A stretch of DNA of 64,000 bases from a phage, in sequence record PZ452581.1; one strand, written 5' to 3'. The notes under the pieces were generated by a model that searched no databases, had not been told where the DNA came from, and saw only the letters and a program-made list of their open reading frames with translations. Made by a program: the position numbers and the translations under genes. Positions 4,168 to 63,502 of this stretch are shown in pieces. Within the stretch, counting starts at the first letter, position 1. Every line of letters begins with the position of its first letter.

Positions 4168-4317
4168 TTACTGCATGACTGTGATAACTGTCATGATAAC
4201 ACGTTGAATTCCGAACGCAAGAAGACCTCCTGCTACGGCTGGAACAACACCTAAACCCGCCAGTAAAATGCTACCGGATACTAATGCAGCGCTTGTAATA
4301 CCTATGAATGGACTCAT
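4168..4317 (-). CDS. Small membrane protein (motA.1-like, 49 aa)
   Basis: Hand-translated hydrophobic ORF MSPFIGITSAALVSGSILLAGLGVVPAVAGG...; ATGA overlap with gene 52 stop. Confidence 0.45.
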   Translation of the reverse strand: MSPFIGITSAALVSGSILLAGLGVVPAVAGGLLAFGIQRVIMTVITVMQ

Positions 4318-5642
4318 TTGATTTCCTCTAAATCTTTAGTGTATTCGGTAACTACATCAGTAGTTTTCCAATATTCGTTTTCTTCTTTCTTAGCTTTAGC
4401 TTCTTCAGCAAGTTTCTTTGCTTCGTCGGAAGTCATATGAAAAATATTCATTCCGACTAGTTTATCAACATAAGAAGAATACATCTCAATTTTAGAAAGT
4501 TCTTCGGTCAGTTCTTTACGAGTTTTACCTTGAACAACAATTTCACCTGAAATTACTTTCTTAATGAAATGTGCCTTGGCAAAGGCTAAACGAAAAGCTG
4601 ACTCAGTTTCTTTGATTTTGTTATCAATTCGTTTTTGGACATAAGTTTTACGAACTTCAACAAAGTCTTTAATTAAATCAACTACGTTATCGTAAACTTG
4701 CAGTTTTCCTTTCTCATTAATGACGGTAATATTCTGAGAACGACGCTCAATCAACCCGAAGTCTTTCATAATTTTTGCATGGCGTTCTTCTTCATTATCG
4801 CTCAAAGAATATTCTTTACGGAATTTAACTTTGAATCCAAAACCATGCTCACCACAAGCATCATCCCATGTAATGAAGCCTTTATCTTCAAGTGGGTCTA
4901 AGATTTTACTCACATAAGTTTCACGATCATACTTATACGGAATCTCAGTGATATGCATTTGAGTTCGTGAAGTAAACTTATATGTTCCACGAATTTCATA
5001 TTGCCCATCAATTTCAACGACTTCACCACGAAATTCTGGGAATTCTACCTTCGGTTTAGTTACTTTCTTTCCTTGAAGAGCTTGCAGTACAGCTTTCTTA
5101 ACAGAAGAAACACTATGAGGAAGAATGTAAGTTGCATAACCAGTTGCAATACCGGAAACGCCATTAAGAAGAACAGTAGGAATAATAGGCAAATAGAAAG
5201 CAGGCGGAATGTGTTCTTTATCTTGATGTACCGGAGCATATTCAGTATCTTTATATACGTTATAGAAATTTTTACTTACACGAGCAAAAATATAACGACT
5301 TGCTGCTGCTTTTTGGACGGTACGAGAACCAAAGTTTCCTTGACCATCTAACAGAGGAAAGTTATTATTCCAAGTGTTAGCCATCAAAGCACCTGCGTCT
5401 TGCGCAGAGTTTTCACCATGATGATATCCAAGGTCCGCTACACCACCTGCAATAGAAGCAAGTTTGTGAAACTTATCTTTATTTCCTCGTGCCAAATCAA
5501 GAGCTCGAGCAATAACAAATCGTTGGACTGGCTTAAATCCGTCAATCATATTTGGGATAGCACGATTTTCAACCGTGTACATAGCATAAGCCAATGCTTC
5601 ATTATCAATGATACTTTTTAAATCGCGATTATTCAGTTGCAT
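4314..5642 (-). CDS. 52: DNA topoisomerase II medium subunit gp52 (GyrA-like)
   Basis: 442 aa; cleavage-religation domain motifs (PVQRFVIARALDL..., GQGNFGS); same length as T4 gp52. Confidence 0.95.
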   Translation of the reverse strand: MQLNNRDLKSIIDNEALAYAMYTVENRAIPNMIDGFKPVQRFVIARALDLARGNKDKFHKLASIAGGVADLGYHHGENSAQDAGALMANTWNNNFPLLDGQGNFGSRTVQKAAASRYIFARVSKNFYNVYKDTEYAPVHQDKEHIPPAFYLPIIPTVLLNGVSGIATGYATYILPHSVSSVKKAVLQALQGKKVTKPKVEFPEFRGEVVEIDGQYEIRGTYKFTSRTQMHITEIPYKYDRETYVSKILDPLEDKGFITWDDACGEHGFGFKVKFRKEYSLSDNEEERHAKIMKDFGLIERRSQNITVINEKGKLQVYDNVVDLIKDFVEVRKTYVQKRIDNKIKETESAFRLAFAKAHFIKKVISGEIVVQGKTRKELTEELSKIEMYSSYVDKLVGMNIFHMTSDEAKKLAEEAKAKKEENEYWKTTDVVTEYTKDLEEIK

Positions 5643-9604: not shown

Positions 9605-11782
9605 TTAGGCCGCAAGGGCCTTCATAGTTTTAGCGATTTGGGAAACTTCATCATCGCTTAAAGAATTGCGATAACCGATGAAGTCGGAAACAATACGGAA
9701 TTTCTTGGTAAACTCAGCAACCATTTTATCACTATTTTTTGAAGCATTACGTGATAATTCATCAAAGAGATTAGTTACTGTCCAGATATCATGACCGATG
9801 GTATCTTTTCCACCATTGAAATACACACCGCGTAATGAACTAACCATATTACCAAGTCGTGTATATTCTTCAGAAACTTCATCTGTACTGAAGTACTTCA
9901 TCATAAAATCTAGTTCAGGATACTTGATAATTTTATCAATATATCGTTGAGCTGAACTTGAATAACCTACATACTTATCATAATCTACATCATCAAAAGC
10001 ATCTACATATAAATCACGCAAAGCTTCAAAAATACATTGGCACTGACCGAGTTCTTTTACCTTTTTCTGTAAAAGCGGACGAATAACATAAAATTCATTA
10101 ATGCCAATAAGATTAGCCATACGAATCAAAATATTCATAGATGGATGACAAAGTGATGTAGTACCATCCATAGAGAAAATATCAGAACGATGCATATACG
10201 CTACATAACCAGTAATTTCATCTGCTTCTGACGTAAGTGTAAATAATTCCTCTTTTTCCCAACGCCCATCTTTAATTTCAAACTTAAATGCTGTAGCAGC
10301 TTTAGGACGAGGAGCTTTACTTTTAACTACCTTTGGAATATAGCTTTTAACTAAAGCTTCAATTTCTGACAAATAATGAATGTTAACTTCATCACTTTCA
10401 AACATTGCCATAATATCAGGTAGTAAATCAATCTGCGATTCTACTTCCGGATTAATAAACAGAAGACGCTCATTGTGATGAATATTTAAAGTGTTATTAA
10501 ATTCACTATCATCTAGCGCATGTGCTAATCCACGGACAATATTAACACGATTTTTAATATTATCAATAACGATATTAATTTTTGTTGTATTAATACCAAA
10601 CAGACGATAACTTGACGCAACGGCTGATGTTTCATGACTTTGCTTAATGCGCTTCAGTCGAGGGTCAAGATTTACTTCATATACAACTCCTGCATTACAT
10701 AACTTACTGTCAGGTTCAAACATGCTCTGCATTTTCTTATATGACAGATTTTTAGTCGTGAATTTGACTGAATTACTAATCATATAATCTCGAGCAGAAT
10801 ACCCCATCTTCATCAATTCACGATATGTGTGACGAGGAGATGTAGATTCTTTAAATCGTTTTACATCTTCATTAAATGCTTTCTCACTAAGCTCTTTAAC
10901 TCGTTCAATAATATTTTTACGAGTGCGATCATCTAATGAAAGAGCTTCACGTGATGGAGCAATATCAAGTGAACCCATTGGAAATTTAATGTAATTCACT
11001 TCATTACGAATGCTTAGCCAGTTACGGTCTCTAATAACACCATCGATAGGATAAACAATACCACCATAGATAGCATATAATCCACCACGATCAGGCCAGT
11101 ATCTTTCTGGATTTACACCGTAATAGTCATCAAAATCCGGAAAATAATCAATTTCGCGGTCAAGACCATTAATGATAGCCAAATCTTTGAACGGTCGCAT
11201 GATATAAGAAACTTCATAAGCAAAGTTTCTAAAGTCTTTTTCTTCAACTGGAACTACGATTTCAATACCAGTTTTATCATCTGGACCCATTTCTTTCACG
11301 AATGTAGGTTTAATTTGTGGACCATCGCCATCCATGTAAGCTACATAACCACGAATTTCACCTTTATGATACGAAGTAATACTAAATGTATCAGTATAAC
11401 TAAACGGAGATTTAGAACCTAAACCAAATCCGCCAATGAAATCGTTAGATTCAGCCTTAGATGAACTGAAGTATGAATTATACAAACCAGGAGAATTATC
11501 ATCACCCTGAATATCAAAATCACTCATACCCGGACCAAAATCTCGGCAAACAAATCGTGGATCTAAACGTCCAGGAACTTGAATGATAAATTTTTCAGGA
11601 TTTCCATTGAGAGCATGGGCATCAATCATGTTGGTAATCAATTCACGGACTACTGCGCGAATTTTGTTTGTATACAAATCAGATGACAGAATTTTAAATA
11701 CTTTAGGAGATGCTGTGATGCTAAATGCTTTTGATTTAGAACCATTACCAAGAATTGTTTCTTTTTCAGTGGTGATAATCAT
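9605..11782 (-). CDS. rIIA: rIIA protein
   Basis: 725 aa, N-terminus [56 protein letters not shown] matches T4 rIIA. Confidence 0.96.
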
Positions 11783-11792
11783 AATTTCCTCA

Positions 11793-11996
11793 TTAATTCA
11801 TATTACGCTTAATAACTTCAGCAACTTCTAGTAGTTCATCTTTAGTTGCAGTGTCGGATTGAATTTTATCTCTAATATCTTTAAAGCGGTTTTTAAATTC
11901 TTCGGCTTCTCCCATATCGAAAAAGCGTTGAATGATTCTATATTCTCGATGAACTGCTTTATCAAAAAGTTCTAAATTTACTCTATATGATTTCAT
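11793..11996 (-). CDS. Hypothetical protein (rIIA.1-like)
   Basis: 67-aa ORF directly upstream of rIIA. Confidence 0.55.
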
Positions 11997-12019
11997 TTCA
12001 ATATCCTCATTTGCCCAAT

Positions 12020-12052
12020 TAATTATACCACATCCTTGTGGTAAAGTAAACT
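12020..12052 (-). promoter_or_regulatory. T4-early-type promoter upstream of rIIA.1/rIIA
   Basis: Minus-strand GTTTAC, 17-nt spacer, TGGTATAAT. Confidence 0.6.
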
Positions 12053-13871
12053 ACTGGCTCATCCATTCTTTACGAAGGTCAGCATTATCTCCCATGAGCA
12101 TTTCAAAAAGCTCTTTCCAGTTCTCAGGAAGTTTAACAACATCATATACTGGATTTTGAATCATCTCACGATATTCAGATTTTTCCAAAGAGCCAAGTCC
12201 TTTAATATAACGGATGCTATGTTTAGGTAGAGCATCTTTGGCACTCTCATATTCAGCGACTGTATAAAACCATTCTTGTTTTTTACCGACCTGAGCGATG
12301 ATTACAGGAGTTTTGACAAAGCGAATTCGTCCTTGCTCAAACAGTTCTGGCCAATTACTAAAAAATCCAAGAAGAGAAGGATAAATGCTTCCTAGACCAT
12401 CATGGTCAGCATCAGTCATAATAGCAATATTATGATAATTCAAGTTTTCAGCCTTTTCACCAAGAACTAATCCAGTGATTGCGCAAATGTCAAACAGTTC
12501 TTTGTTTTTAAGCATATCGGCATATGACATACCCCAGCTATTAAGAACTTTACCACGTAATGGATAACCGCCATGAAGTTCTTTATCACGAACATCAATA
12601 AGATATCCGATAGCAGAATCACCCTCAGTCAAGAAAAGAGTAGTGTCAGCGTCTTTACCGCAAAGATTCGCTTTAATGTGTTTATGAACCTTAGCTTTAG
12701 AAGCCTTTTTAGCTGCTTTAGTTTCTGCTGCTTTTTCTGCCGCCAATTTACGAGCCAAGGCAGCTTCAATAATTGGCATTAAAATTGCTTCATTGTTTAA
12801 AATAGCGCGTGAAATCTTTTTAGCATCAAGCTGAATATGACTACGAATTTCACCAAATGGAGAAGTCAAACGCTCTTTAGTCTGAGAATCAAATCGCATG
12901 TTTTTCATATCACGAACGAACATAACGATAGTCAAACATTCTTTAACGCGTGCTTTAGTTACATCAATTTTGAACTTACGTTTGATTTGTGGAATAAGGT
13001 CTTCACAAATATCATCCATAACACAGTCAATGTGATGGCCACCATTCTTAGTGTGAATGTTATTCACATAAGTTAATTGGCGAAATCCATCCGGTGAACG
13101 ACCAACCGCAATAGAACAATTTTCTTGTTCTTGAACAATAGCATGTTCATCATACTGTCGTGCATATTTCTTAAAATTGCCCTGAACCTTTTTACCATTA
13201 AAGGTAAATTGAATATCAGGATAAACAACAGCAAGTGTCTGGAGACGATCTAGTGTAATGTCAAGATAAACTTGGGACAGCTCATTAGTTTCAAATGACA
13301 TAAAATCTGGAATGAAAGTAACACGAGTTCCTTTCCATTTTCCAGGAATAGTTTCCCAGGATTTATTTTCCATGCCATTTGAACAACGAACTACAATATT
13401 ATTTTGACCATCGCCAGTTTCACCGACAAACATCACAGAAAAAATGTTAGTTAAACTAGAACCAACACCGTTCATACCGCCAGTGACGCGTTCTTTATCA
13501 TCACCGAAGTTACCACCTGCTTTTGGAATAGTCCAAGCAGCAACAGGACCAGGAATTTCTTCACCAGTAGGTGTTTTAACCATCGCTTGTGGAATACCGC
13601 GACCGTTATCTTCAACTGTTACTTGATTGTTTTTAATAGTAACATTAATTTTATTTGCGAATTTAAACTTAGTACGAATACCTTCATCTACTGAGTTATC
13701 GATAATTTCATCAATAAGCTTAACAAGACCAGGTACATACTGAACACTTTCCCATTTACCAAACAGAAAGCGCTCATGCATTTCATTAGCAGAAGAACCA
13801 ATGTACATGCCGCTACGCTTTTTGATATGTTCAATATCGCTCAGAATTTTAATTTCATTCTTAATCATCAC
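12051..13871 (-). CDS. 39: DNA topoisomerase II large subunit gp39, uninterrupted (GyrB-like ATPase plus the part T4 encodes as gp60)
   Basis: 606 aa. N-terminal GHKL ATPase motifs (IDNSVDEG, GRGIP, GGMNGVG); C-terminus ...NIAIMTDADHDGLGSIYPSLLGFFSNWPELFEQGRIRFVKTP... matches what I recall of T4 gp60. Confidence 0.9.
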   Translation of the reverse strand: MMIKNEIKILSDIEHIKKRSGMYIGSSANEMHERFLFGKWESVQYVPGLVKLIDEIIDNSVDEGIRTKFKFANKINVTIKNNQVTVEDNGRGIPQAMVKTPTGEEIPGPVAAWTIPKAGGNFGDDKERVTGGMNGVGSSLTNIFSVMFVGETGDGQNNIVVRCSNGMENKSWETIPGKWKGTRVTFIPDFMSFETNELSQVYLDITLDRLQTLAVVYPDIQFTFNGKKVQGNFKKYARQYDEHAIVQEQENCSIAVGRSPDGFRQLTYVNNIHTKNGGHHIDCVMDDICEDLIPQIKRKFKIDVTKARVKECLTIVMFVRDMKNMRFDSQTKERLTSPFGEIRSHIQLDAKKISRAILNNEAILMPIIEAALARKLAAEKAAETKAAKKASKAKVHKHIKANLCGKDADTTLFLTEGDSAIGYLIDVRDKELHGGYPLRGKVLNSWGMSYADMLKNKELFDICAITGLVLGEKAENLNYHNIAIMTDADHDGLGSIYPSLLGFFSNWPELFEQGRIRFVKTPVIIAQVGKKQEWFYTVAEYESAKDALPKHSIRYIKGLGSLEKSEYREMIQNPVYDVVKLPENWKELFEMLMGDNADLRKEWMSQ

Positions 13872-13937
13872 TTATCCTCGTTTGGTTTCGGGAATATTAT
13901 ACTCCGGTAATCATAAAGCTAAAGGCCCGAAGGCCTT

Positions 13938-14210
13938 TTATTTAAAACGGATAGTCGAATCCTTGAAGAATAGACCAGAACATACTGTTCCTTCTACTTT
14001 CTGCCCGGTAGGTCCAATAGCACGAAATCCAGTATGTTGGAAATCATTTTCAGAGCAACCGAACCAATTATATCCAGTGATTTCAATATTAGTAAAACCG
14101 CTTGAAGACAAAATTTTGGTTGCATTATCAGCATCAGTACATCCTACTAAAGATACTGCTAATACTAATGCTGCGATAGAACGATTAACATATTTCATAA
14201 TTTCACTCAA
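13938..14210 (-). CDS. Putative lipoprotein
   Basis: 90 aa with signal peptide and lipobox LVGC. Confidence 0.5.
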   Translation of the reverse strand: MSEIMKYVNRSIAALVLAVSLVGCTDADNATKILSSSGFTNIEITGYNWFGCSENDFQHTGFRAIGPTGQKVEGTVCSGLFFKDSTIRFK

Positions 14211-14574
14211 ATTTAATGGCTTGAAGAAGACTAATAATTCTCAAGCGACTTCTTTCATCTTTAACTGTAAAAGAAAGAGGGTCACCAGATTTCATAGTGA
14301 TGGTGCATCCAAAATCAAAATCTTCTGTAACTTCTTCGAAGAAGTCAAATTCTTCATCATAAATTAGAACATTACTCTGAAAGCTGTGAAGAATTTTTCC
14401 ATCATTTCCAGATGCTGTACTAATCATTGTAACATTATGACCTTTCATATCTTCAACGATAAATTCGCTTGTAGATATTACTGCATTAATAGAACCGTTC
14501 CTATGAATAGCAGAAAATAGATATTTCTTTTCTTCACCTTCGCGAACACGATATTTCTTACCGATTTTAAACAT
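14203..14574 (-). CDS. Hypothetical protein
   Basis: 123-aa ORF. Confidence 0.5.
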   Translation of the reverse strand: MFKIGKKYRVREGEEKKYLFSAIHRNGSINAVISTSEFIVEDMKGHNVTMISTASGNDGKILHSFQSNVLIYDEEFDFFEEVTEDFDFGCTITMKSGDPLSFTVKDERSRLRIISLLQAIKFE

Positions 14575-24960: not shown

Positions 24961-25170
24961 TTAAATTACATGATTATTTATAATAAATTCTCGCGGAACG
25001 TTAAAATATCCGATTTTAGTTAATATAACAACATCACCATTAATAATTACCGGAGAATAATCTTCTGAAGCATTAAATTTCCAATGGGCTCTAATATTAT
25101 ATCCATCAGAACCAAATGCTCGACTAGCCGGTCTCCCGGCTTTTTGCCATGCATAAAAATCAAATTTCAT
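24961..25170 (-). CDS. Hypothetical protein
   Basis: 69-aa ORF between soc and 56, where T4 carries segF. Confidence 0.45.
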   Translation of the reverse strand: MKFDFYAWQKAGRPASRAFGSDGYNIRAHWKFNASEDYSPVIINGDVVILTKIGYFNVPREFIINNHVI

Positions 25171-25370
25171 TTTGAATGCTCTATAATTAATTTTAAGGCT
25201 TCTTCACGCACCAACTTGTCTAATGGTATATGCCCAGTTTTAATTGTGTAAGCTTTGTGGAGCTGATTAGATAAGAGCTCGTATGTGAGCTCTTTGTCAT
25301 AATCTTTAAATAGCTGGTCAATACGTTTCTTGCGGGCTTTCTTAAGCTGGCGTTTATTTAAACGAGCCAT
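25167..25370 (-). CDS. Hypothetical basic protein
   Basis: 67-aa lysine/arginine-rich ORF. Confidence 0.45.
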   Translation of the reverse strand: MARLNKRQLKKARKKRIDQLFKDYDKELTYELLSNQLHKAYTIKTGHIPLDKLVREEALKLIIEHSK

Positions 25371-25888
25371 TAATAGCCTCTGTCTTGACGAGCGAAGTTT
25401 TCAGCATTTTTCAGATAATAAAGTTTAAATATTTCTTCAGCTGACATTCCAAGAGCAATAAATTTATTCATGAAAAAGTGAAATTGGTCAATCAGTTCAA
25501 ATTTAATTTCAAGCTGATCTTCAGGAGATAAGTCTTGAATTTTCTTGGATTGCATTTCAGAATAACGTTTCTTCCAAGGTTTCCATACAGCAGAAGCTTC
25601 TTTTTCACCATTACTCATACCACCAAGAGAAGTATATAGCTCGCGAGTTTCGTCTGCGATATAATCGTCTTGGTTTCGCAGCCAAGCAAGAACTTCTCCT
25701 GCAGTTTCAAGTGAATCAGGATGACGATTTGTTTCTGGTTTATCATTAGCCAAACGAATCTGTAAATGCCGCTGCATGTCAAGCATAACCTGCAATGGGT
25801 CAATACTGTGCATAATATACTCAGCATATGCACGATTTGCTTTATCAACACCTTCGATCAAATGAGCACATTCATTAAAGTGAGCCAT
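25370..25888 (-). CDS. 56: dCTP pyrophosphatase (dCTPase) gp56
   Basis: Track ORF 25370-25981 trimmed to internal Met MAHFNECAHLIEGVDKANRAYAEYIMH matching T4 gp56 N-terminus; MazG-like. Confidence 0.88.
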   Translation of the reverse strand: MAHFNECAHLIEGVDKANRAYAEYIMHSIDPLQVMLDMQRHLQIRLANDKPETNRHPDSLETAGEVLAWLRNQDDYIADETRELYTSLGGMSNGEKEASAVWKPWKKRYSEMQSKKIQDLSPEDQLEIKFELIDQFHFFMNKFIALGMSAEEIFKLYYLKNAENFARQDRGY

Positions 25889-25959
25889 TATTTTTCCTTT
25901 CAATTCATGGGTTAGTAGATTAATTATACAATAAATATATAAAGCAATAAGGAGGACAT

Positions 25960-27353: not shown

Positions 27354-27710
27354 TTAACCTCTATTCATAAAAGCATTAAAAATTTGGTCATCAATAGATG
27401 GAATAGCAACCTTTTCGGCATCATTTAGCAAATCATTAATTTCATCAGATAGCATAACACATGTGCCTTTATTTCCTGTAATTGTTACTGCACAATTACG
27501 AACGTTTTCTTTATCAAAATTTAGGTTAATATTTTCGTAGTGAAAATCCTTTAATGCCGAATATATCTTTAAAATGAAATTGTCTTTTACTACAATAAAC
27601 CCAACTTCACTATTAAAACGTGGTTCATGGAAACTATAATAAACCTTTTCATCTATAAAATCGTATGAAATTTTTTCCATTTTTAAATATGAAAATTCAG
27701 AACTATACAT
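27354..27710 (-). CDS. Hypothetical protein (61.1-like)
   Basis: 118 aa; C-terminus SIDDQIFNAFMNRG shared with next ORF. Confidence 0.5.
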   Translation of the reverse strand: MYSSEFSYLKMEKISYDFIDEKVYYSFHEPRFNSEVGFIVVKDNFILKIYSALKDFHYENINLNFDKENVRNCAVTITGNKGTCVMLSDEINDLLNDAEKVAIPSIDDQIFNAFMNRG

Positions 27711-30991: not shown

Positions 30992-32147
30992 TTAACTGTT
31001 CGAGGTCAGTTTCTAAATCAGCTGCTGATTTACTTTTACTTTCTGGGGATTTAAATTTTTCAACTTTTGAGTTAATTAATTCATCAACTTCAGCTTCAAC
31101 AATTTCATTACTATCAATAGCACCTAACTGATAAGCACGTTTAATAGCATCTCGGAATGGTTGATGCTTAAATAAAGGACCCCAGAATGTAGTGCAGTTA
31201 GTATCTTTTGCACGCCAAGATTTTTCTTCGCGAATCATCTCGCCGGTTTCTTCATCAAGAAATTCACGAGCATACCAACCATTTTTAGGTTTTACTACAA
31301 ATCCTAATTCAAGAGCCATATCTAACAATCCAGAATAAGGATCGATGCCACCGTCAAATTTAACATCAATAAAGAATTTACTTTTTTCTTTAACGGTACG
31401 AGATTTTTCTACATTTAGAACAAATTGATACCCCTGAAGATCAGAACCATCTTTAATCTGGCGCTTACCGATAATGAATACAGTATCAGCCGAATACATT
31501 ACGCCTGTACCACCTGTCATCACGGTTTTACTAAACATTTCAATTGTTTCAATTGTGTGGTTAACCGCAACACATGGAATGTTTTTAATACTAAAATAAG
31601 GAGTAACAATACGGAATAATGACTTCAGTGATTTAGCACGAGTCATATCTGCCACAGATTTTTCATTCAAGGCATCTTCCGTTTCTTTCTTAGAAGCCAT
31701 ATTACCAATTGAGTCGATGAATACAATAACCTTTTCACCACGCTCAATAGCTTCAAGCTGATTCACCATATCAATTTTCAGCTGTTCAACTGACTGGATT
31801 GGTGTATGAATTACACGTTCCGGATCAACTCCCATGGATCGCAAATAAGCTGGAGTAATACCAAATTCGCTATCATAGAATAAACAAACCGCATCAGGAT
31901 ATTTGTTCAAATACGCCGCAACCATAGTCAAAGACATATTTGATTTAAAGTGTTTAGAAGGACCTGCAAAAATGGTTAAACCAGACTGCATTCCACCATC
32001 AATCGCACCAGAAATAGCGATATTGAGCATTGGGATTTTTGTACGGATTACATCCTTTTCATTAAAGAATTTAGATGTAGTCAGTTCAGCAGTCATTTTA
32101 GAAGTGGAAGCTTTAATCAAACGGGATTTTAAATCTGCAATAGACAT
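30966..32147 (-). CDS. uvsX: Recombinase UvsX (RecA-like)
   Basis: 393 aa; Walker A GPSKHFKS; close to T4 UvsX with scattered substitutions. Confidence 0.95.
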   Translation of the reverse strand: MSIADLKSRLIKASTSKMTAELTTSKFFNEKDVIRTKIPMLNIAISGAIDGGMQSGLTIFAGPSKHFKSNMSLTMVAAYLNKYPDAVCLFYDSEFGITPAYLRSMGVDPERVIHTPIQSVEQLKIDMVNQLEAIERGEKVIVFIDSIGNMASKKETEDALNEKSVADMTRAKSLKSLFRIVTPYFSIKNIPCVAVNHTIETIEMFSKTVMTGGTGVMYSADTVFIIGKRQIKDGSDLQGYQFVLNVEKSRTVKEKSKFFIDVKFDGGIDPYSGLLDMALELGFVVKPKNGWYAREFLDEETGEMIREEKSWRAKDTNCTTFWGPLFKHQPFRDAIKRAYQLGAIDSNEIVEAEVDELINSKVEKFKSPESKSKSAADLETDLEQLSDMEEFNE

Positions 32148-32224
32148 TCATTTTTTCCATAGGCATCATTATATTTTCCTCACTGGTTAAAGATAGGGTA
32201 ATTATAACACAATAAATTTAGGCA

Positions 32225-33073
32225 TTAATCAACTACTATTGGATGAATAGCATTAAACTTATGAAACGCTTCTGATTTTTCTTTGCGCGAAACACACATG
32301 CGAAGAACCTTTAATGGCTCGTCTTCTTCACCCAACGATTTTCGTTTTTCAATATTAGAAGTTTTCCAACGAGCTTGCTCTGGAAACTCTTTATTGATTT
32401 GCTCAAGAGCTCTATTATGTTTTGAATTACTACGAATTGAACTACATCCGCCAGGAGCTTGTGCTTTTCCAGACACAACCAGATATTTGAACAAGGCCAA
32501 ATGCGGATAACCTTGATTAATTAAATTGAGAAATGCATACATATCTTCGCACAAATCAATTTTTCCATACCCAATTTGTTCTGTCGTAAGTTTTCCAAGG
32601 TCATACCATGTATTCGTGAATCCATATGAATTTTCACGATAATTACCCCAAGATGAAGTAATTTTAAAAATAGGTAGACGAGCATGACCGTGATAATACC
32701 CGCAATCCATGGCATCTTCCACGTATTGAATCAATTCATAGAACTGTTCACGAGTTAATTGATTAATTTTATCTACGCAGCGACGATCATCTTTCTTTCG
32801 CATTGAACTCATACGAATAGTAGTATCATCATCAATCATCCAGATTCGTTGACCTGCATACATATCAGTAATTGCTTTACGAGTACCAGCAATTCCATTA
32901 ACATCATCAGGAATAGTTATAATTTTAGCTCTAGACCCGTAAGCGTCATAATAAGCTTTTTCTTCGTGTTCACGTACTACAATATGAGGTTCATAATCAG
33001 ATGGAAACATATCAAGGGCAGAAACTGCCCCTACGCGTTGATAGCTTGGAATTACGAATTGAATCATTTCCAC
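32225..33073 (-). CDS. GT-A fold glycosyltransferase at the T4 beta-gt locus, putative beta-alpha-glucosyltransferase of T2/T6 type
   Basis: 282 aa with N-terminal VIPSYQR and DDD (DXD-type) motif; unlike T4 beta-gt (351 aa, GT-B) which starts MKIAIINMGNNV. Confidence 0.55.
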   Translation of the reverse strand: MEMIQFVIPSYQRVGAVSALDMFPSDYEPHIVVREHEEKAYYDAYGSRAKIITIPDDVNGIAGTRKAITDMYAGQRIWMIDDDTTIRMSSMRKKDDRRCVDKINQLTREQFYELIQYVEDAMDCGYYHGHARLPIFKITSSWGNYRENSYGFTNTWYDLGKLTTEQIGYGKIDLCEDMYAFLNLINQGYPHLALFKYLVVSGKAQAPGGCSSIRSNSKHNRALEQINKEFPEQARWKTSNIEKRKSLGEEDEPLKVLRMCVSRKEKSEAFHKFNAIHPIVVD

Positions 33074-33804
33074 TCACCGTTATAATCTTTTTTCGCAATA
33101 TGAGTTTCGCCAGTTTTCCACCAATGGTCAACCAAATAAAAATGACGGGAATACACATGAAGGCTCCCGACATTCCATATAATGGAACCTGCTTTATACT
33201 GACGAGTTGAATCACCTGCATTCAAATCAGATACTAATTTATCTAGTACATATTTTTGCCATGCATAATCATTACGGAATCCGAAGACCACGTCATTTGA
33301 ACGCATGTTAACCACTGCATTAATTTTCTTATCACGAATCAGGTACTGTACTGTATTAGTACACATGAAATCCGACATGCCATCTTTATTGTAGTCAAAC
33401 TGCATGGATGGACGAGTATAAATCATGATACCGCGTCGAGAATCAGGATTTTGACCAAGTTCAGCTAAACACATATCATACTGGGCATAGTTATCTTCTG
33501 ACCAGATGGCCCAACCATAATTCGAGTTAATTTCGCCTTTAGAAGATGCTACCTGCTGCCAAATCTTCGGCGTTTCACCTGGAATATCTTTAACAAACAG
33601 ACTTTGAGACTTATACCATTCAAGTTCACGCTGAATGTATTCATCATTAAGAGAGCCAAAAATAAAAGGTTCATCTGCTACAAATGATGCACCAATAATT
33701 TCAATAGTTTTAACCCCGGTTTTATCAATTACGAAATCTTTTTCCTTTAATGCAAGACCCAAATCAAGACGGATTTCTTCAACTGTCATATAATCGTTAA
33801 TCAT
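33064..33804 (-). CDS. 42: dCMP hydroxymethylase gp42
   Basis: 246 aa; matches T4 gp42 (…GIMIYTRPSMQFDYNKDGMSDFMCTNTVQYLIRD…). Confidence 0.95.
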   Translation of the reverse strand: MINDYMTVEEIRLDLGLALKEKDFVIDKTGVKTIEIIGASFVADEPFIFGSLNDEYIQRELEWYKSQSLFVKDIPGETPKIWQQVASSKGEINSNYGWAIWSEDNYAQYDMCLAELGQNPDSRRGIMIYTRPSMQFDYNKDGMSDFMCTNTVQYLIRDKKINAVVNMRSNDVVFGFRNDYAWQKYVLDKLVSDLNAGDSTRQYKAGSIIWNVGSLHVYSRHFYLVDHWWKTGETHIAKKDYNGEWK

Positions 33805-44451: not shown

Positions 44452-45654
44452 TTATTTTGTAATAATGTCAAACTGCTCTTTAAAGCAGAAGCTTGAATCT
44501 TGATGCTGATACAAAAATTCATAAGCTTTTTCACGTTCACGGTCATAAAGAGCTCGGTCAGATGACAGTTCTTTAATACGTTCAAATGTTGATTCCATGT
44601 CATTTTCATCAAACCAAACGATACCGCTATCATGAGAAATTAACGGAGTATTATCAACACGGAATTTTAAATTTTCGCCAGTAGATTTCCAAAATACTGG
44701 AATTGTTCCACATGCACCAAGCTCGAGATGAGTATATTCTAAAGAACGTTGTAGATATTTTTTATCTAATTTACTCAGCTGATAACCAAATCCGGATTTA
44801 CTCATGCGTTCAAGCATTTCGCTATTTACATAACGGTCAAGAATTTGCGTTGGCAAATTAGGAGCAATTTTAATTTGGTCTACTTGATGAAGACGATAAT
44901 ACTCGTATGGAATTCCTTTTTCTTTAATAGGAATGAACGCTGGAGAACGTTCCAGACCTTCCATAATAGTACTTAGTCCTGCAGGTTTAAGATGTTTTTC
45001 ATGAAAATCAAACATCTGATAAAAACCTTTCCATGTAGTAGTACGACCAATCCAACGGTTGATATTCATGTTAATTTCAGAAACATCTTTCCAGTAGGTT
45101 GATCGAACCTTCGCAATATCCATAGGAGGCTGAAAGTTGTATACGGTCGGTGCTTCTTCAACATCATCAAACAGTGAAACAGTTTCTGGATACCATTCTT
45201 TCATTAAAACTTTATTAAAATCACCATTATCAGAATGGCTAAAAATAACATCAGCTCGACGAACAGTTTCTTCTAATCCCAAATTTCGGCGCAAAGAAAG
45301 AGAAGAATGGTCATGTTGATAAACTACAACACGAACCGAAGGTTTAATGTTATCAATAATTTTTTTATAGTTATTAATAGTGTCTTCTTCGACTGAAGTA
45401 GCAGGAACTGAATTGATAATTAGAATATCACAATCATTTACCAGCTTAAGTGTTTTATCGTATTCTTTTGCCAATAAAACCGGAATTGAAAATGACTTAT
45501 AATCATGCGCGCAATTACGAGTAAATGATTTATCTTTAGCATAAACCAAAGTTACTTCATGACCATTTTTAATAAACCAATCACGTTGCTCAAGAGAAAA
45601 TTTAGTTACGCCACAACCTTCAAGACCTCGAGCCATAAAAATGCATACTTTCAT
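44452..45654 (-). CDS. agt: Alpha-glucosyltransferase (hmC DNA alpha-glucosylation)
   Basis: 400 aa, MKVCIFMARGLEGCGVTKFSLEQRDWFIKNGHEVTLVYAKDKSF matches T4 alpha-gt. Confidence 0.9.
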   Translation of the reverse strand: MKVCIFMARGLEGCGVTKFSLEQRDWFIKNGHEVTLVYAKDKSFTRNCAHDYKSFSIPVLLAKEYDKTLKLVNDCDILIINSVPATSVEEDTINNYKKIIDNIKPSVRVVVYQHDHSSLSLRRNLGLEETVRRADVIFSHSDNGDFNKVLMKEWYPETVSLFDDVEEAPTVYNFQPPMDIAKVRSTYWKDVSEINMNINRWIGRTTTWKGFYQMFDFHEKHLKPAGLSTIMEGLERSPAFIPIKEKGIPYEYYRLHQVDQIKIAPNLPTQILDRYVNSEMLERMSKSGFGYQLSKLDKKYLQRSLEYTHLELGACGTIPVFWKSTGENLKFRVDNTPLISHDSGIVWFDENDMESTFERIKELSSDRALYDREREKAYEFLYQHQDSSFCFKEQFDIITK

Positions 45655-45897
45655 TTAATATCCTCATTGTTTTGGTTTATTTTACCAAAAATTTATAAAG
45701 CAATATAGGAGCCGAAGCTCCTATCCGCATAATACACCATACAGAGGCTCATTAGAGCTTCTAAATTTTATACGCTTATATGTTATAGTTCCTTCTGCTT
45801 TAGCTTTATCATGAGATTCTTTAAAGCGTCTCATCATTTCTACTTTAGAGGAACGAATTTTATTATAATCTATTTCACAAGTCTGGGCGTTCATCTT

Positions 45898-49687: not shown

Positions 49688-50158
49688 TTAATCATGTTTC
49701 CACACCCCATCGGTATTTGACCAAAGTCGCTGATTATCTGATCCTCGCCACAGCTTTTTGGTCGGAAGATTTTTCTCATACTTCCCATCAATAATAACAT
49801 CAACATATTTAAGCATTTCTAGTTGTTTAATATCTTCAAATTTATATCCTGTCCACAACCAAATGCTTTTATTGGGATAAAGATTTTTTACTGTTTGAAC
49901 AATGCAATGAACAACATCTCGGTTATCAGGATAGAGAGGGTCTCCTCCAGTTATAGTTAATCCTTCTATATAATCATTATTCAAACATTCAATTAATTGT
50001 TCTAGTGTTTCACCAGTGAATGGAACGCCATTTCTAGCGTTCCATGTTGATTTATTATAACACCCTTCACATTTATGCAAACAACCTGTAACGAAAAGAA
50101 CGACCCTGCATCCAGGGCCATTCACAAAATCGCAAGGATAAAATCTATCATAATTCAT
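49688..50158 (-). CDS. nrdG: Anaerobic ribonucleotide reductase activating protein NrdG (radical SAM)
   Basis: 156 aa with CxxxCxxC cluster GCLHKCEGC. Confidence 0.93.
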   Translation of the reverse strand: MNYDRFYPCDFVNGPGCRVVLFVTGCLHKCEGCYNKSTWNARNGVPFTGETLEQLIECLNNDYIEGLTITGGDPLYPDNRDVVHCIVQTVKNLYPNKSIWLWTGYKFEDIKQLEMLKYVDVIIDGKYEKNLPTKKLWRGSDNQRLWSNTDGVWKHD

Positions 50159-51972
50159 TGGTGTTTAACCCTATGCATGATTTCTTTATTTTTGCCGAGA
50201 TTAAATCCACGTTCGTTCGGATTTCCCAAATAACCACAAGTTCTTCTTATTGTGTTCATCTTTTTAGGATCAGTTTCTCCACAAATAGAACAAACAAACC
50301 CGTTTTCAGTAGGAGTCATTTCATGGGTACTTCCACACGTAAAACATTTATCTACTGGCATGTTAACACCAAAATAATCTAAATGTTGTGCAGCATAATC
50401 CCATACAGCCTCAAGACCTTTTAGGTTATTTTTCATATCAGGAAGTTCAACATAAGAAATGTGACCGCCTGTCGCAATGAAATGATATGGGGCTTCGCGA
50501 GAAATCTTTTCAAACGGAGTAATATTTTCTTCTACTGAAACGTGGAAACTGTTAGTGTACCAGCCTTTATCAGTAACATCCTTTACACTTCCATATTTCT
50601 CAGTATCAAGTTTACAGAAGCGATAACAAAGGTTTTCAGCAGGTGTAGAATACAAGCTAAAAGCAAAACCAGTTCTTTCAGTCCACTGCTTAAGACGAGC
50701 ATTCATTTTAGTTAAAATTTCCTGTCCAATATCACGACCGACAAGAATATTCAATTCGTGAATACCAATGTATCCTAAGGACACTGAACTTCTACCGTTT
50801 TTAAATAACTCAATTATATCATCATCGGGTTTAAGACGAACCCCGAATGCACCTTCTTGGTAAAGAATAGGAGCAACAGTAGCTTTAACTCCTTTTAATG
50901 AACTAATTCTACACATCAATGCTTCAAAACACAAATCCATTCGTTCATTGAACAATTCGGCAAATTTCTGTTCATTGAACTGTGTTCCAATATAAGAATC
51001 TAATGCAATACGAGGAAGATTCAGTGTTACAACGCCAAGATTATTACGTCCATCAAGAATTTCATTACCAGTCGAATCTTTCCATACGCTCAAGAAACTG
51101 CGGCAACCCATTGGAGAAACAGGAATAGATGAACCTGTGATAGCTTTATTGTTCTTAGCTGAAATAATATCAGGATACATTCTTTTGCTTGCACACTCTA
51201 GAGCAAGCTGCTTAATATCATAGTTCGGATCGTCTTTATAAAGATTAACACCTTCTTCAACGAACATAACAAGCTTAGGGAAAATAGGAGTTATCCCATC
51301 GCGACCAAGGCCTTTAATACGATTTTTCAGAATTGCTTTCTGAATCATTCGTTCAGTCCAGTCAGTTCCCGTGCCAAATGTAATTGTTACAAAAGGCGTT
51401 TGTCCATTTGAACTAAAGAGAGTATTTACTTCATATTCATAAGCTTGGAACGCATCGTATACGTCTTTTTCTGTTTTAGATTGGGCATAATTCAACGCAT
51501 CAGCGATTTGCCATTTTTCTGCATCCTCAATATGTTTTGCATAGGTGCGTTTAACATAAGGAGAAAGGACTTTGTCTACATTTGCAAAAGTCGTTCCACC
51601 GTATTGATGGGAAGCAACCTGTGCAGTAATTTGTGCCATAATTGCAGTAGCAACACCGATTGATTTAGGAGTTTCAATCTGTGCATTACCGAGCTTAAAT
51701 CCGTTCTCAAGCATTCCTTTTAAATCTACTAAACAGCAATTAGTAAATGGAAGAGCAGGGGAATAATCAATATCATGGAAATGAATAATTCCGCTTTCAT
51801 GCGCTTTCATAATAAAAGACGGGACCATATTTTTGGCAATGTGTTTAGACACAATACCAGCCATAAGGTCCCGTTGAGTTGGAAAAACACGAGAATCTTT
51901 ATTAGCATTCTCGTTCAAAAGGTCTTTATTAGTTTTATGAATCAATCCTTCAATTTCTTTTTCAATTGTCAT
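50155..51972 (-). CDS. nrdD: Anaerobic ribonucleoside-triphosphate reductase NrdD, uninterrupted
   Basis: 605 aa; C-terminal zinc ribbon CFTCGS...CSICG and glycyl-radical region RTCGYLG; contiguous reading frame. Confidence 0.95.
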   Translation of the reverse strand: MTIEKEIEGLIHKTNKDLLNENANKDSRVFPTQRDLMAGIVSKHIAKNMVPSFIMKAHESGIIHFHDIDYSPALPFTNCCLVDLKGMLENGFKLGNAQIETPKSIGVATAIMAQITAQVASHQYGGTTFANVDKVLSPYVKRTYAKHIEDAEKWQIADALNYAQSKTEKDVYDAFQAYEYEVNTLFSSNGQTPFVTITFGTGTDWTERMIQKAILKNRIKGLGRDGITPIFPKLVMFVEEGVNLYKDDPNYDIKQLALECASKRMYPDIISAKNNKAITGSSIPVSPMGCRSFLSVWKDSTGNEILDGRNNLGVVTLNLPRIALDSYIGTQFNEQKFAELFNERMDLCFEALMCRISSLKGVKATVAPILYQEGAFGVRLKPDDDIIELFKNGRSSVSLGYIGIHELNILVGRDIGQEILTKMNARLKQWTERTGFAFSLYSTPAENLCYRFCKLDTEKYGSVKDVTDKGWYTNSFHVSVEENITPFEKISREAPYHFIATGGHISYVELPDMKNNLKGLEAVWDYAAQHLDYFGVNMPVDKCFTCGSTHEMTPTENGFVCSICGETDPKKMNTIRRTCGYLGNPNERGFNLGKNKEIMHRVKHQ

Positions 51973-62520: not shown

Positions 62521-62978
62521 TCAGCCTTATATTCAATAACAGGACATACTTTAGCTTTACGAGCTTTTAAAAATTCAACGATAATCGATTTCTTGGGTTG
62601 AATAGGAGGTAAACCTTTATACGCCCTATCAATATTTTCTATGTGTAAAGCATAATCCTTTTTCCATTTATAATCTTTATATTTTTCATGTAAATGTGCA
62701 GGAATAACAAATGAACCGATAATAAGTAAAACAACCAAAAGCGCAAGTATAAATGCTGATGGAATAAGAGTCCATAAACTACCAAAAATAAGCCATTTCT
62801 GCATGATTTCTGCGCAGATAATAGTTAGACCTGCGAGTATAGTACATCCGAAAAAAGAAACGAAAAATGTAGGAATAACAACAGACCAAAAATATGCACA
62901 CAGTGTCTTAGGTCGTTTCCATTCATCATTAAACATTTTGAATAATTTATAGTGCCAAGAGTTTTCATTAATAATCAT
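62517..62978 (-). CDS. Membrane protein
   Basis: 153 aa with two or three TM segments. Confidence 0.5.
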   Translation of the reverse strand: MIINENSWHYKLFKMFNDEWKRPKTLCAYFWSVVIPTFFVSFFGCTILAGLTIICAEIMQKWLIFGSLWTLIPSAFILALLVVLLIIGSFVIPAHLHEKYKDYKWKKDYALHIENIDRAYKGLPPIQPKKSIIVEFLKARKAKVCPVIEYKAE

Positions 62979-62980
62979 AA

Positions 62981-63502
62981 TTATCCTTTCATTGAAGGTG
63001 TAACAGTTGTTAAATACTTAATCATAGCTTCAGCTTCTGATTTTGATAATGAAATTTCTCCATTGTTTTGACGAATAGAAATAAAATCCGGATGACGGTC
63101 ACCACCAGCTTTTAAAATACACATATAAGTATCAGTTTCATCTTCAATATCTGAAATGATTGAAGCAGTTCCGCATGAATGTGGTTTTTGATAAATCAAT
63201 GCAGCTTTTCTTCCACCGTTTGACTGTTCATAAACTTTTAACACATCAAACAAATCACTTCTTTTATCAATAGCTAAGATGTTGTTTTCATCTTCAATGT
63301 TAAATCCTTCGGATACTTCATAAAGTGTCACCCATAAATCACCGATGTCAATAACAGCATTTCCTTTTCCACGACTTTCAAGAATATGACAAATTTTCTT
63401 GATTTCGTCATAACTCATTTTAATAATATCATCTCCTTGAATAAGGAAGATGTCATTTTTAAATTTAACGCGAATTAAACCACTTCCACTTGAAATAAAC
63501 AT
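62981..63502 (-). CDS. Hypothetical protein
   Basis: 173 aa; C-terminal motif shared with next ORF. Confidence 0.5.
   Translation of the reverse strand: MFISSGSGLIRVKFKNDIFLIQGDDIIKMSYDEIKKICHILESRGKGNAVIDIGDLWVTLYEVSEGFNIEDENNILAIDKRSDLFDVLKVYEQSNGGRKAALIYQKPHSCGTASIISDIEDETDTYMCILKAGGDRHPDFISIRQNNGEISLSKSEAEAMIKYLTTVTPSMKG

Follow-up and report, generated by a model that had tools for sequence, protein, structure and literature searches.

The DNA topoisomerases II of phages T2 and T6 consist of two subunits, and T4 alone has three, with an insertion of about 70 aa in the TOPRIM domain (PMC11461880). In T4 the large subunit is encoded by the split genes 39 and 60, in an arrangement that comprises a MobA cassette and a 50-nt translational bypass (bioRxiv 10.1101/2022.08.31.505936). 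The MobA element of the T4 clade has been described as a deletion of 64 nt of parental sequence combined with an insert-borne homR of 67–81% identity, to which 9 more nt beyond the gap belong (Manning and Atkins, bioRxiv 10.1101/2022.08.31.505936). According to Bonocora et al. (2011), as related in bioRxiv 10.1101/2022.08.31.505936, intact MobA nicks gene 39 of T2, split and gap are transferred together, and the gap, situated about 20 nt downstream of the MobA nick, shields the invaded allele. By the account given in the same preprint, MobA insertions are recent and occurred independently in several phage clades, each with 'parental' relatives at 96–99% identity; the uninterrupted allele is treated there as parental (bioRxiv 10.1101/2022.08.31.505936). 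As for function, T-even phage topoisomerase II relaxes DNA and does not supercoil it, and T6 gp39 has been expressed, assembled with gp52, found to relax DNA and resolved by cryo-EM (PMC11461880).

Results

The DNA analyzed here, hereafter the window, is a stretch of 64,000 nt from a phage (PZ452581.1). Its ORF listing contains a single ORF at 12051–13871 on the minus strand, exactly where the original prediction, which named no strand, had placed one uninterrupted gene for the topoisomerase large subunit; as listed, it encodes 606 aa from a GTG and ends with DLRKEWMSQ before the stop codon. The GTG (13871–13869) is merely the first start-type codon past an in-frame TAA, and the codon directly after it is an ATG (13868–13866). 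A Shine-Dalgarno sequence GAGGA, read at 13875–13879 on the minus strand and the same in T2 and T4, is spaced 6 nt from this ATG but just 3 nt from the GTG. Moreover, the sequence upstream of the ATG is the same in T2 and T4, and the proteins of T2, T4, T6 and ime09 all begin with MIKNEIK. The GTG start at 13871 was rejected on the grounds of the Shine-Dalgarno spacing and of all homologues. For the same reasons, the true start of gene 39 is almost certainly ATG 13868, and the gene would thus extend over 12051–13868 (minus strand, 1818 nt) and encode 605 aa plus the stop. The single ORF of the original prediction was therefore confirmed, and its length has to be corrected from 606 to 605 aa, since the GTG adds one spurious residue. 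A length of 605 aa is that of T2 and T6 gp39, and the ime09 gene annotated as 'gp60plus39' has 1818 nt, as does T2 gene 39.

Gene 39 of the window is free of stops and frameshifts throughout the ORF. In the junction region its frame is open, with neither a stop nor a frameshift, whereas stop codons are abundant in the other two frames. A promoter and terminator scan of 11700–14300 revealed no enrichment as compared to shuffled sequences.

The gene product was recognized as the large, GyrB-like, ATP-hydrolysing subunit of DNA topoisomerase II: it matches phrog_543 ('DNA topoisomerase II large subunit', E = 1.6e-295) in PHROGs, and the E-values against T4 gp39, T4 gp60, T2 gp39 and T6 gp39 range from 2e-95 (gp60) down to 0. 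Pfam identified HATPase_c, the GHKL ATPase domain, at residues 48–150 (E = 1.9e-9, above the gathering score), the transducer domain DNA_gyraseB (PF00204) at residues 251–385 (E = 1.5e-13) and TOPRIM_C at residues 520–605. Additionally, residues 1–380 match the crystal structure of the T6 ATPase domain (9IMJ). The gene is flanked as in T4 and T2, with rIIA and rIIA.1 downstream and a homologue of 39.1 upstream; rIIA.1 (11793–11996, minus strand; Pfam T4_RIIA1, E = 2e-33) follows immediately downstream, a placement shared with T4 and T2. The partner gene 52, encoding the medium, GyrA-like subunit of 442 aa, was found at 4314–5642 on the minus strand (phrog_551, E = 5e-221; gyrA/parC-type N-terminal matches in NCBIfam) and is syntenic with T4 gene 52.

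Compared with T4, the window thus encodes a homologous enzyme at the same genomic place between rIIA.1 and 39.1, but in one reading frame that comprises both T4 parts. In BLASTP, in the numbering of the 606-aa ORF, residues 2–474 correspond to T4 gp39 1–473 (465/473 identical, 98%) and residues 473–606 to T4 gp60 27–160 (128/134 identical, 96%); in the numbering of the 605-aa protein these are residues 1–473 and 472–605, respectively. The C-terminal part is therefore gp60-like, and over gp60 47–160 the protein sequence is the same in T4 and the window. No counterpart of T4 gp39 474–516 and gp60 1–26 was detected in the gene 39 product by BLASTP, codon reading or tblastx with the cassette. At the nucleotide level, BLASTN aligned window positions 14200–12451 with T4 5661–3911 (95.2%) and positions 12386–11700 with T4 2793–2107 (98.8%), so that the breakpoints pair window 12451 with T4 3911 and window 12386 with T4 2793. 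Between these breakpoints lie 64 nt in the window (12450–12387) as compared to 1117 nt in T4 (3910–2794). The latter constitute the T4 MobA cassette, which contributes a 43-aa tail to gp39 and to gp60 a 30-aa head along with a diverged homologous stretch of 16 aa, all absent here, and which further holds the mobA pseudogene, 60.1 and the 50-nt coding gap, none of which is present in the window.

The 64-nt 'parental' segment (12387–12450, minus strand), delimited by the BLASTN breakpoints and by codon reading, spans codons ~474–494 of gene 39 and encodes ENLNYHNIAIMTDADHDGLGS. A diverged copy of it resides in the T4 insert at gene 60 codons 31–46, with 76% identity over 46 nt, and the identity of homR over aligned codons amounts to 35/48. 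The first three codons past the T4 gap are TTA GGT TCT in T4 and CTA GGA AGC in the window. Judged from these alignments, the breakpoint figures of window and T4 reproduce the published anatomy of the T4-clade MobA element.

The site at which T4 ribosomes hop was located in the window by codon reading: its equivalent consists of Gly491 (GGT, 12398–12396) followed by Leu492 (CTA, 12395–12393), i.e., 12393–12398 on the minus strand, and the junction reads GAT GGT CTA GGA AGC without interruption. In T4, by contrast, a 50-nt gap separates Gly46 (GGA) from Leu47 (TTA), and the take-off codon is GGA, whereas the window has GGT and is devoid of both the UAG and the stem-loop. The take-off GGA, the in-gap UAG, the stem-loop and the landing GGA are all absent from the window, and so is the nascent-peptide signal of gp60, KKYKLQNNVRRSIKSSS. 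The 20-residue segment NIAIMTDADHDGLGSIYPSL, which had been put forward as read in frame and as lying downstream of the T4 hop, is indeed in frame within the gene 39 ORF; however, it straddles Gly46/Leu47, because its first 12 residues (NVAIMTDADHDG) equal gp60 35–46, upstream of the gap, and only the last eight (LGSIYPSL) equal gp60 47–54, downstream of it.

Remnants of a bypass element were sought at the junction as well. A pattern of the T4 take-off stem-loop gave no match in the whole 64 kb with up to three mismatches allowed. RNA folding of the junction yielded z = -1.7 for the window and -1.4 for T2, with a weak AU-rich stem only, as opposed to the 10-bp GC-rich tetraloop hairpin at the T4 take-off site, which has no equivalent in the window junction. 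At a permissive E-value, Rfam returned one chance-level match to an unrelated thermometer family, which scored 17 bits where the gathering threshold is 50. Remnants of a bypass hairpin were accordingly rejected, as pattern search, folding and Rfam all failed to support them, and the prediction that the gene lacks a bypass element holds.

The absence of the homing-endonuclease-associated insertion, likewise predicted, was corroborated by translated searches. In the 64 kb, no homologue of the T4 mobA fragment or of gp60.1 was detected by tblastn, and tblastx with the whole 1117-nt cassette returned just the 20-aa homologous stretch, at 70%. Furthermore, none of the other T4 homing endonucleases was found in the window by tblastn, and the segments replaced relative to T4 contained no endonuclease domain according to Pfam. 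The window as a whole is collinear with T4 160197–168903 plus 1–57774 and is mosaic relative to T4. Over the T4-collinear span it lacks every T4 homing-endonuclease gene as well as dam and β-gt, and it encodes a Gp38 adhesin of the T2 type. The absence of the endonucleases, dam and β-gt together with the Gp38 type is consistent with a T2/T6-like phage poor in mobile endonucleases.

Among the closest relatives, T6 gp39 (PDB 8YLU chain C; further entries 8YO1, 8YO5, 8YO7, 8YOD and 8YON) has 605 aa, of which 604 are identical, Q526H being the single difference; it shares the single-gene arrangement and the gp52 partner, the remaining differences between the genes are synonymous, and no functionally significant difference is apparent. 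T2 gene 39 (LC348380, 2458–4275) likewise measures 1818 nt, with 96.3% nucleotide identity, the same flanks rIIA.1 and 39.1, and 68 scattered substitutions. These affect 66 codons, 64 of them synonymously, and leave two amino acid differences (L70F and D173T). The differing codons are also largely synonymous in comparison with ime09 (47/49) and T4 gene 39 (57/65), and exclusively so in the T4 gene 60 part (8/8), which indicates strong purifying selection over the entire gene and also at the junction.

A 3-kb query around gene 39 matched 756 phage records. The best matches were Tequatrovirus at 97–98% (JLBYU24, PP01, teqhad, ime09 and others); in all of these the gene is annotated as one 'DNA topoisomerase II large subunit', and several records name it 'gp60plus39'. 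Alleles designated 'gp60plus39' or 'parental Topo2L' (RB51, ime09, RB14 and some 450 further Tequatrovirus records) have the same gene and junction at 95–99% nucleotide identity and differ by strain-level polymorphism only. For counting intact alleles, the 489 records covered to at least 80% by the 3-kb query were set aside, because T4-type records can join across the insertion, and the count was based on a 121-nt query spanning the junction. When only unbroken matches to 80% or more of this query were counted, the uninterrupted junction was recovered in 448 phage records, whereas the T4 MobA cassette was found in 43 (T4 isolates, RB55, RB59, HY01, vB_EcoM_112 and others). Roughly 90% of the sequenced close relatives of T4 therefore carry the intact allele. 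These data bear on whether the continuous frame could be an artefact of assembly or annotation in which a short insert, a frameshift or the hop was collapsed. With the same 121-nt junction present in 448 independently sequenced records, substitutions relative to T2 and T4 that are nearly all synonymous, and a length exactly that of T2 and T6 gp39, the probability of such an artefact appears vanishingly small.

Discussion

Here, gene 39 of the window was compared to the split genes of T4 and to the single genes of T2 and T6. We consider it very highly probable that the window derives from a T2/T6-like Tequatrovirus with an intact gene 39, whose large subunit is translated from a single frame and which has never received the MobA cassette; no observation spoke against this identification.

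The organization of the TOPRIM domain speaks to the direction of the change. The catalytic Glu415 in LTEGDSA (12624–12626, minus strand) and the acidic cluster D-A-D-H-D with Asp486, Asp488 and Asp490 (12399–12413, minus strand) were assigned by alignment to the EGDSA and DxDxD motifs of topoisomerase IV and TOP2B. In T4 the Glu is encoded in gene 39 and the DxDxD in gene 60, while in the window both reside on one chain, which thus carries a complete TOPRIM domain: LTEGDSA and MTDADHDG align to topoisomerase IV and human TOP2B with no gap at the junction. Residues 400–540 align without a break to the TOPRIM of bacterial topoisomerase IV and human TOP2B, the shared motifs being EGDSA, PLRGK(I/V)LN, L(R/N)Y.. 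and the acidic (M)TD.D.DG. A fusion of T4 gp39 and gp60, on the other hand, yields two alignment pieces that are 69 residues apart at that exact junction point. More generally, GyrB, ParE and the N-terminal half of eukaryotic Topo II have the same architecture of GHKL ATPase, transducer and TOPRIM, with EGDSA, PLRGK and DxDxD collinear, but these cellular type IIA B modules are distant in sequence, and the scores remain far under the gyrB and parE equivalog cut-offs. The view expressed in the original prediction that the uninterrupted arrangement is ancestral is supported by this gap-free collinearity, as opposed to the 69-residue insertion in T4. 'Ancestral' is to be understood as a phylogenetic inference, as an earlier insertion would leave no trace if recombination with an uninvaded phage had later replaced it perfectly.

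Such a history of hit and run, in which the cassette was once present and then lost, genes 39 and 60 were fused again, and the contiguous gene is derived, has a precedent: re-fused genes are known in an Aeromonas phage clade (Manning and Atkins, bioRxiv 10.1101/2022.08.31.505936). Moreover, T-even phages recombine freely, and the mosaic structure of the window relative to T4 is in line with this. However, the re-fused Aeromonas genes retain C- and N-terminal extensions derived from the cassette, whereas the cassette search in the window found just the 20-aa homologous stretch; the 64-nt segment is 100% T2-like and only 73–76% identical to T4 homR; and the junction region aligns with the cellular enzymes free of indels. 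Had a naive allele taken the place of an invaded one through recombination, the outcome could in practice not be told apart from a gene that was never invaded. Secondary restoration is accordingly regarded as highly unlikely, and an allele that never contained the cassette remains the preferred reading.

The never-invaded allele may be expected to be open to invasion. According to the published account, the MobA nick region on T2 falls within the 64-nt segment. This segment is 100% identical between the window and T2, and the identity extends over gene nt ~1416–1495, spanning the homR-equivalent region and the insertion point of the gap. Because the segment is identical to that of T2, a published MobA substrate, the allele of the window is predicted to be a MobA-sensitive recipient. 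Homing-endonuclease targets can gain resistance substitutions, and a few synonymous differences between the window and T2 do occur just outside the segment, e.g., GGA TTA versus GGT CTA about 35 nt upstream; an intact allele whose target has diverged enough to escape MobA is nevertheless extremely unlikely, given that the window equals T2, a demonstrated MobA substrate, from gene nt ~1416 to ~1495. There is a very low probability that the allele either is a secondary product, freed of the cassette when its lineage recombined with a naive phage, or carries subtle changes outside the core that alter its MobA sensitivity, and sequence signs of one or the other were not found in the window. Either case, if true, would be informative on how the 50-nt ribosomal hop, the sole efficient one known, is gained and lost.

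We propose that the large subunit of 605 aa, composed of GHKL ATPase, transducer and TOPRIM domains and a C-terminal tail, would be produced by conventional translation from one mRNA frame. Together with gp52 it would form an enzyme of A2B2 composition, which would hydrolyse ATP to relax DNA while the phage replicates. We infer this ATP-dependent relaxation activity because of the 604/605 identity to the active T6 gp39. The allele would never have obtained the MobA cassette that splits the gene in T4 and about 40 relatives and brings in the 50-nt translational bypass, and this phage would be expected to acquire that cassette when a mobA+ phage infects the same cell.

The arrangement as such is already known and represents the ordinary, majority and structurally characterized form of the gene. 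Earlier work has described Topo2L in its parental form, the deletion of 64 nt, the nicking of T2 by MobA and the protection conferred by the bypass insert (bioRxiv 10.1101/2022.08.31.505936), and prior accounts comprise Uzan and Miller (2010), Bonocora et al. (2011), Manning and Atkins (2022) and the T-even topoisomerase II structures published in Nat Commun in 2024 (PMC11461880). The result classes the phage as a T2/T6-like Tequatrovirus poor in T4 homing endonucleases. With its T2-identical MobA target, the allele could serve as it stands as the recipient in experiments on homing and bypass, and the uninterrupted form of gene 39 is the baseline for interpreting the split gene of T4, MobA homing and the gene 60 hop.

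Translation of the uninterrupted gene 39, which encodes the topoisomerase II large subunit, very likely begins at ATG 13868 rather than at GTG 13871. Reading of the start region (13866-13879, minus strand) places a GAGGA motif upstream of this ATG at the proper spacing of 6 nt, and the N-terminus translated from it, MIKNEIK, is the same as in T2, T4 and T6; the GTG is disfavored by both features. From this start codon, the encoded protein would comprise 605 amino acids, one fewer than the 606 of the original prediction. Around the site where T4 carries its MobA cassette, identity to T4 was uneven, with 98.8% downstream over 11700-12386 (the gene 60 part, rIIA.1 and the start of rIIA) as compared to 95.2% upstream over 12451-14200 (the gene 39 part). 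This asymmetry may reflect a mosaic recombination history.

Comparison of the 64-kb span with T4 revealed that all homing-endonuclease genes which T4 carries here, freestanding or intron-borne, are missing, i.e., segF, segA, mobB, mobC, the nrdD group I intron with I-TevII, and mobD (sites compared: 24983-25369, 32136-33081, 45646-45669, ~50138-50158, 51434-51437, and 62522-63483). Moreover, tblastn detected no homologues of segF, segA, mobB, mobC, I-TevII or mobD in the whole window. The segF slot is occupied by two small ORFs, one of them a DUF7422 protein gene. In the mobD slot lie genes whose products are a predicted membrane protein of 153 aa and a protein resembling y05I. Adjoining the segF slot, gene 56 (dCTPase; 25373-25888, minus strand) forms a sharply diverged patch, with 73% nucleotide and 70% amino acid identity to T4, whereas its neighbors show 93-98% identity. 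Between genes 56 and 61, where T4 possesses the DNA adenine methyltransferase gene dam (899 nt), the window has only about 20 nt (25929-25948), and no Dam homologue was found anywhere in it; this layout recurs in 113 or more phage records, among them those of RB18, KIT03 and phiD1.

Two small minus-strand ORFs mark differences from T4. The 123-aa ORF at 14203-14574, between 39.1 and 39.2, is missing in T4 and matches phrog_622 (unknown function), its N-terminus weakly resembling goF-family PHROGs; it is present in T2 as T2_005 and in ime09, annotated there as RB69ORF005c. The 118-aa ORF at 27354-27710, within a 309-nt segment missing in T4 beside the gene 61.2 region, matches the C-terminal half of the anti-DarT factor AdfA (PF23813, E = 1.5e-8), and hence may represent an anti-defence gene in partial or duplicated form.

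Positions 2-619 on the plus strand encode the C-terminal portion of a Gp38 tail-fibre adhesin rich in glycine (PF05268, E = 9.6e-69). Since this segment does not resemble T4 gene 38 at the DNA level, the adhesin is, judged by sequence, a T2-type receptor-recognition module. Furthermore, where T4 carries segA and the β-glucosyltransferase gene, the window encodes a 282-aa TET-associated-glycosyltransferase-family protein (32225-33073, minus strand; PF20691, E = 1.3e-9), while α-gt is kept (44455-45654, 91% amino acid identity to T4), which suggests a hydroxymethylcytosine glucosylation pattern of the T2/T6 type rather than the T4 type.
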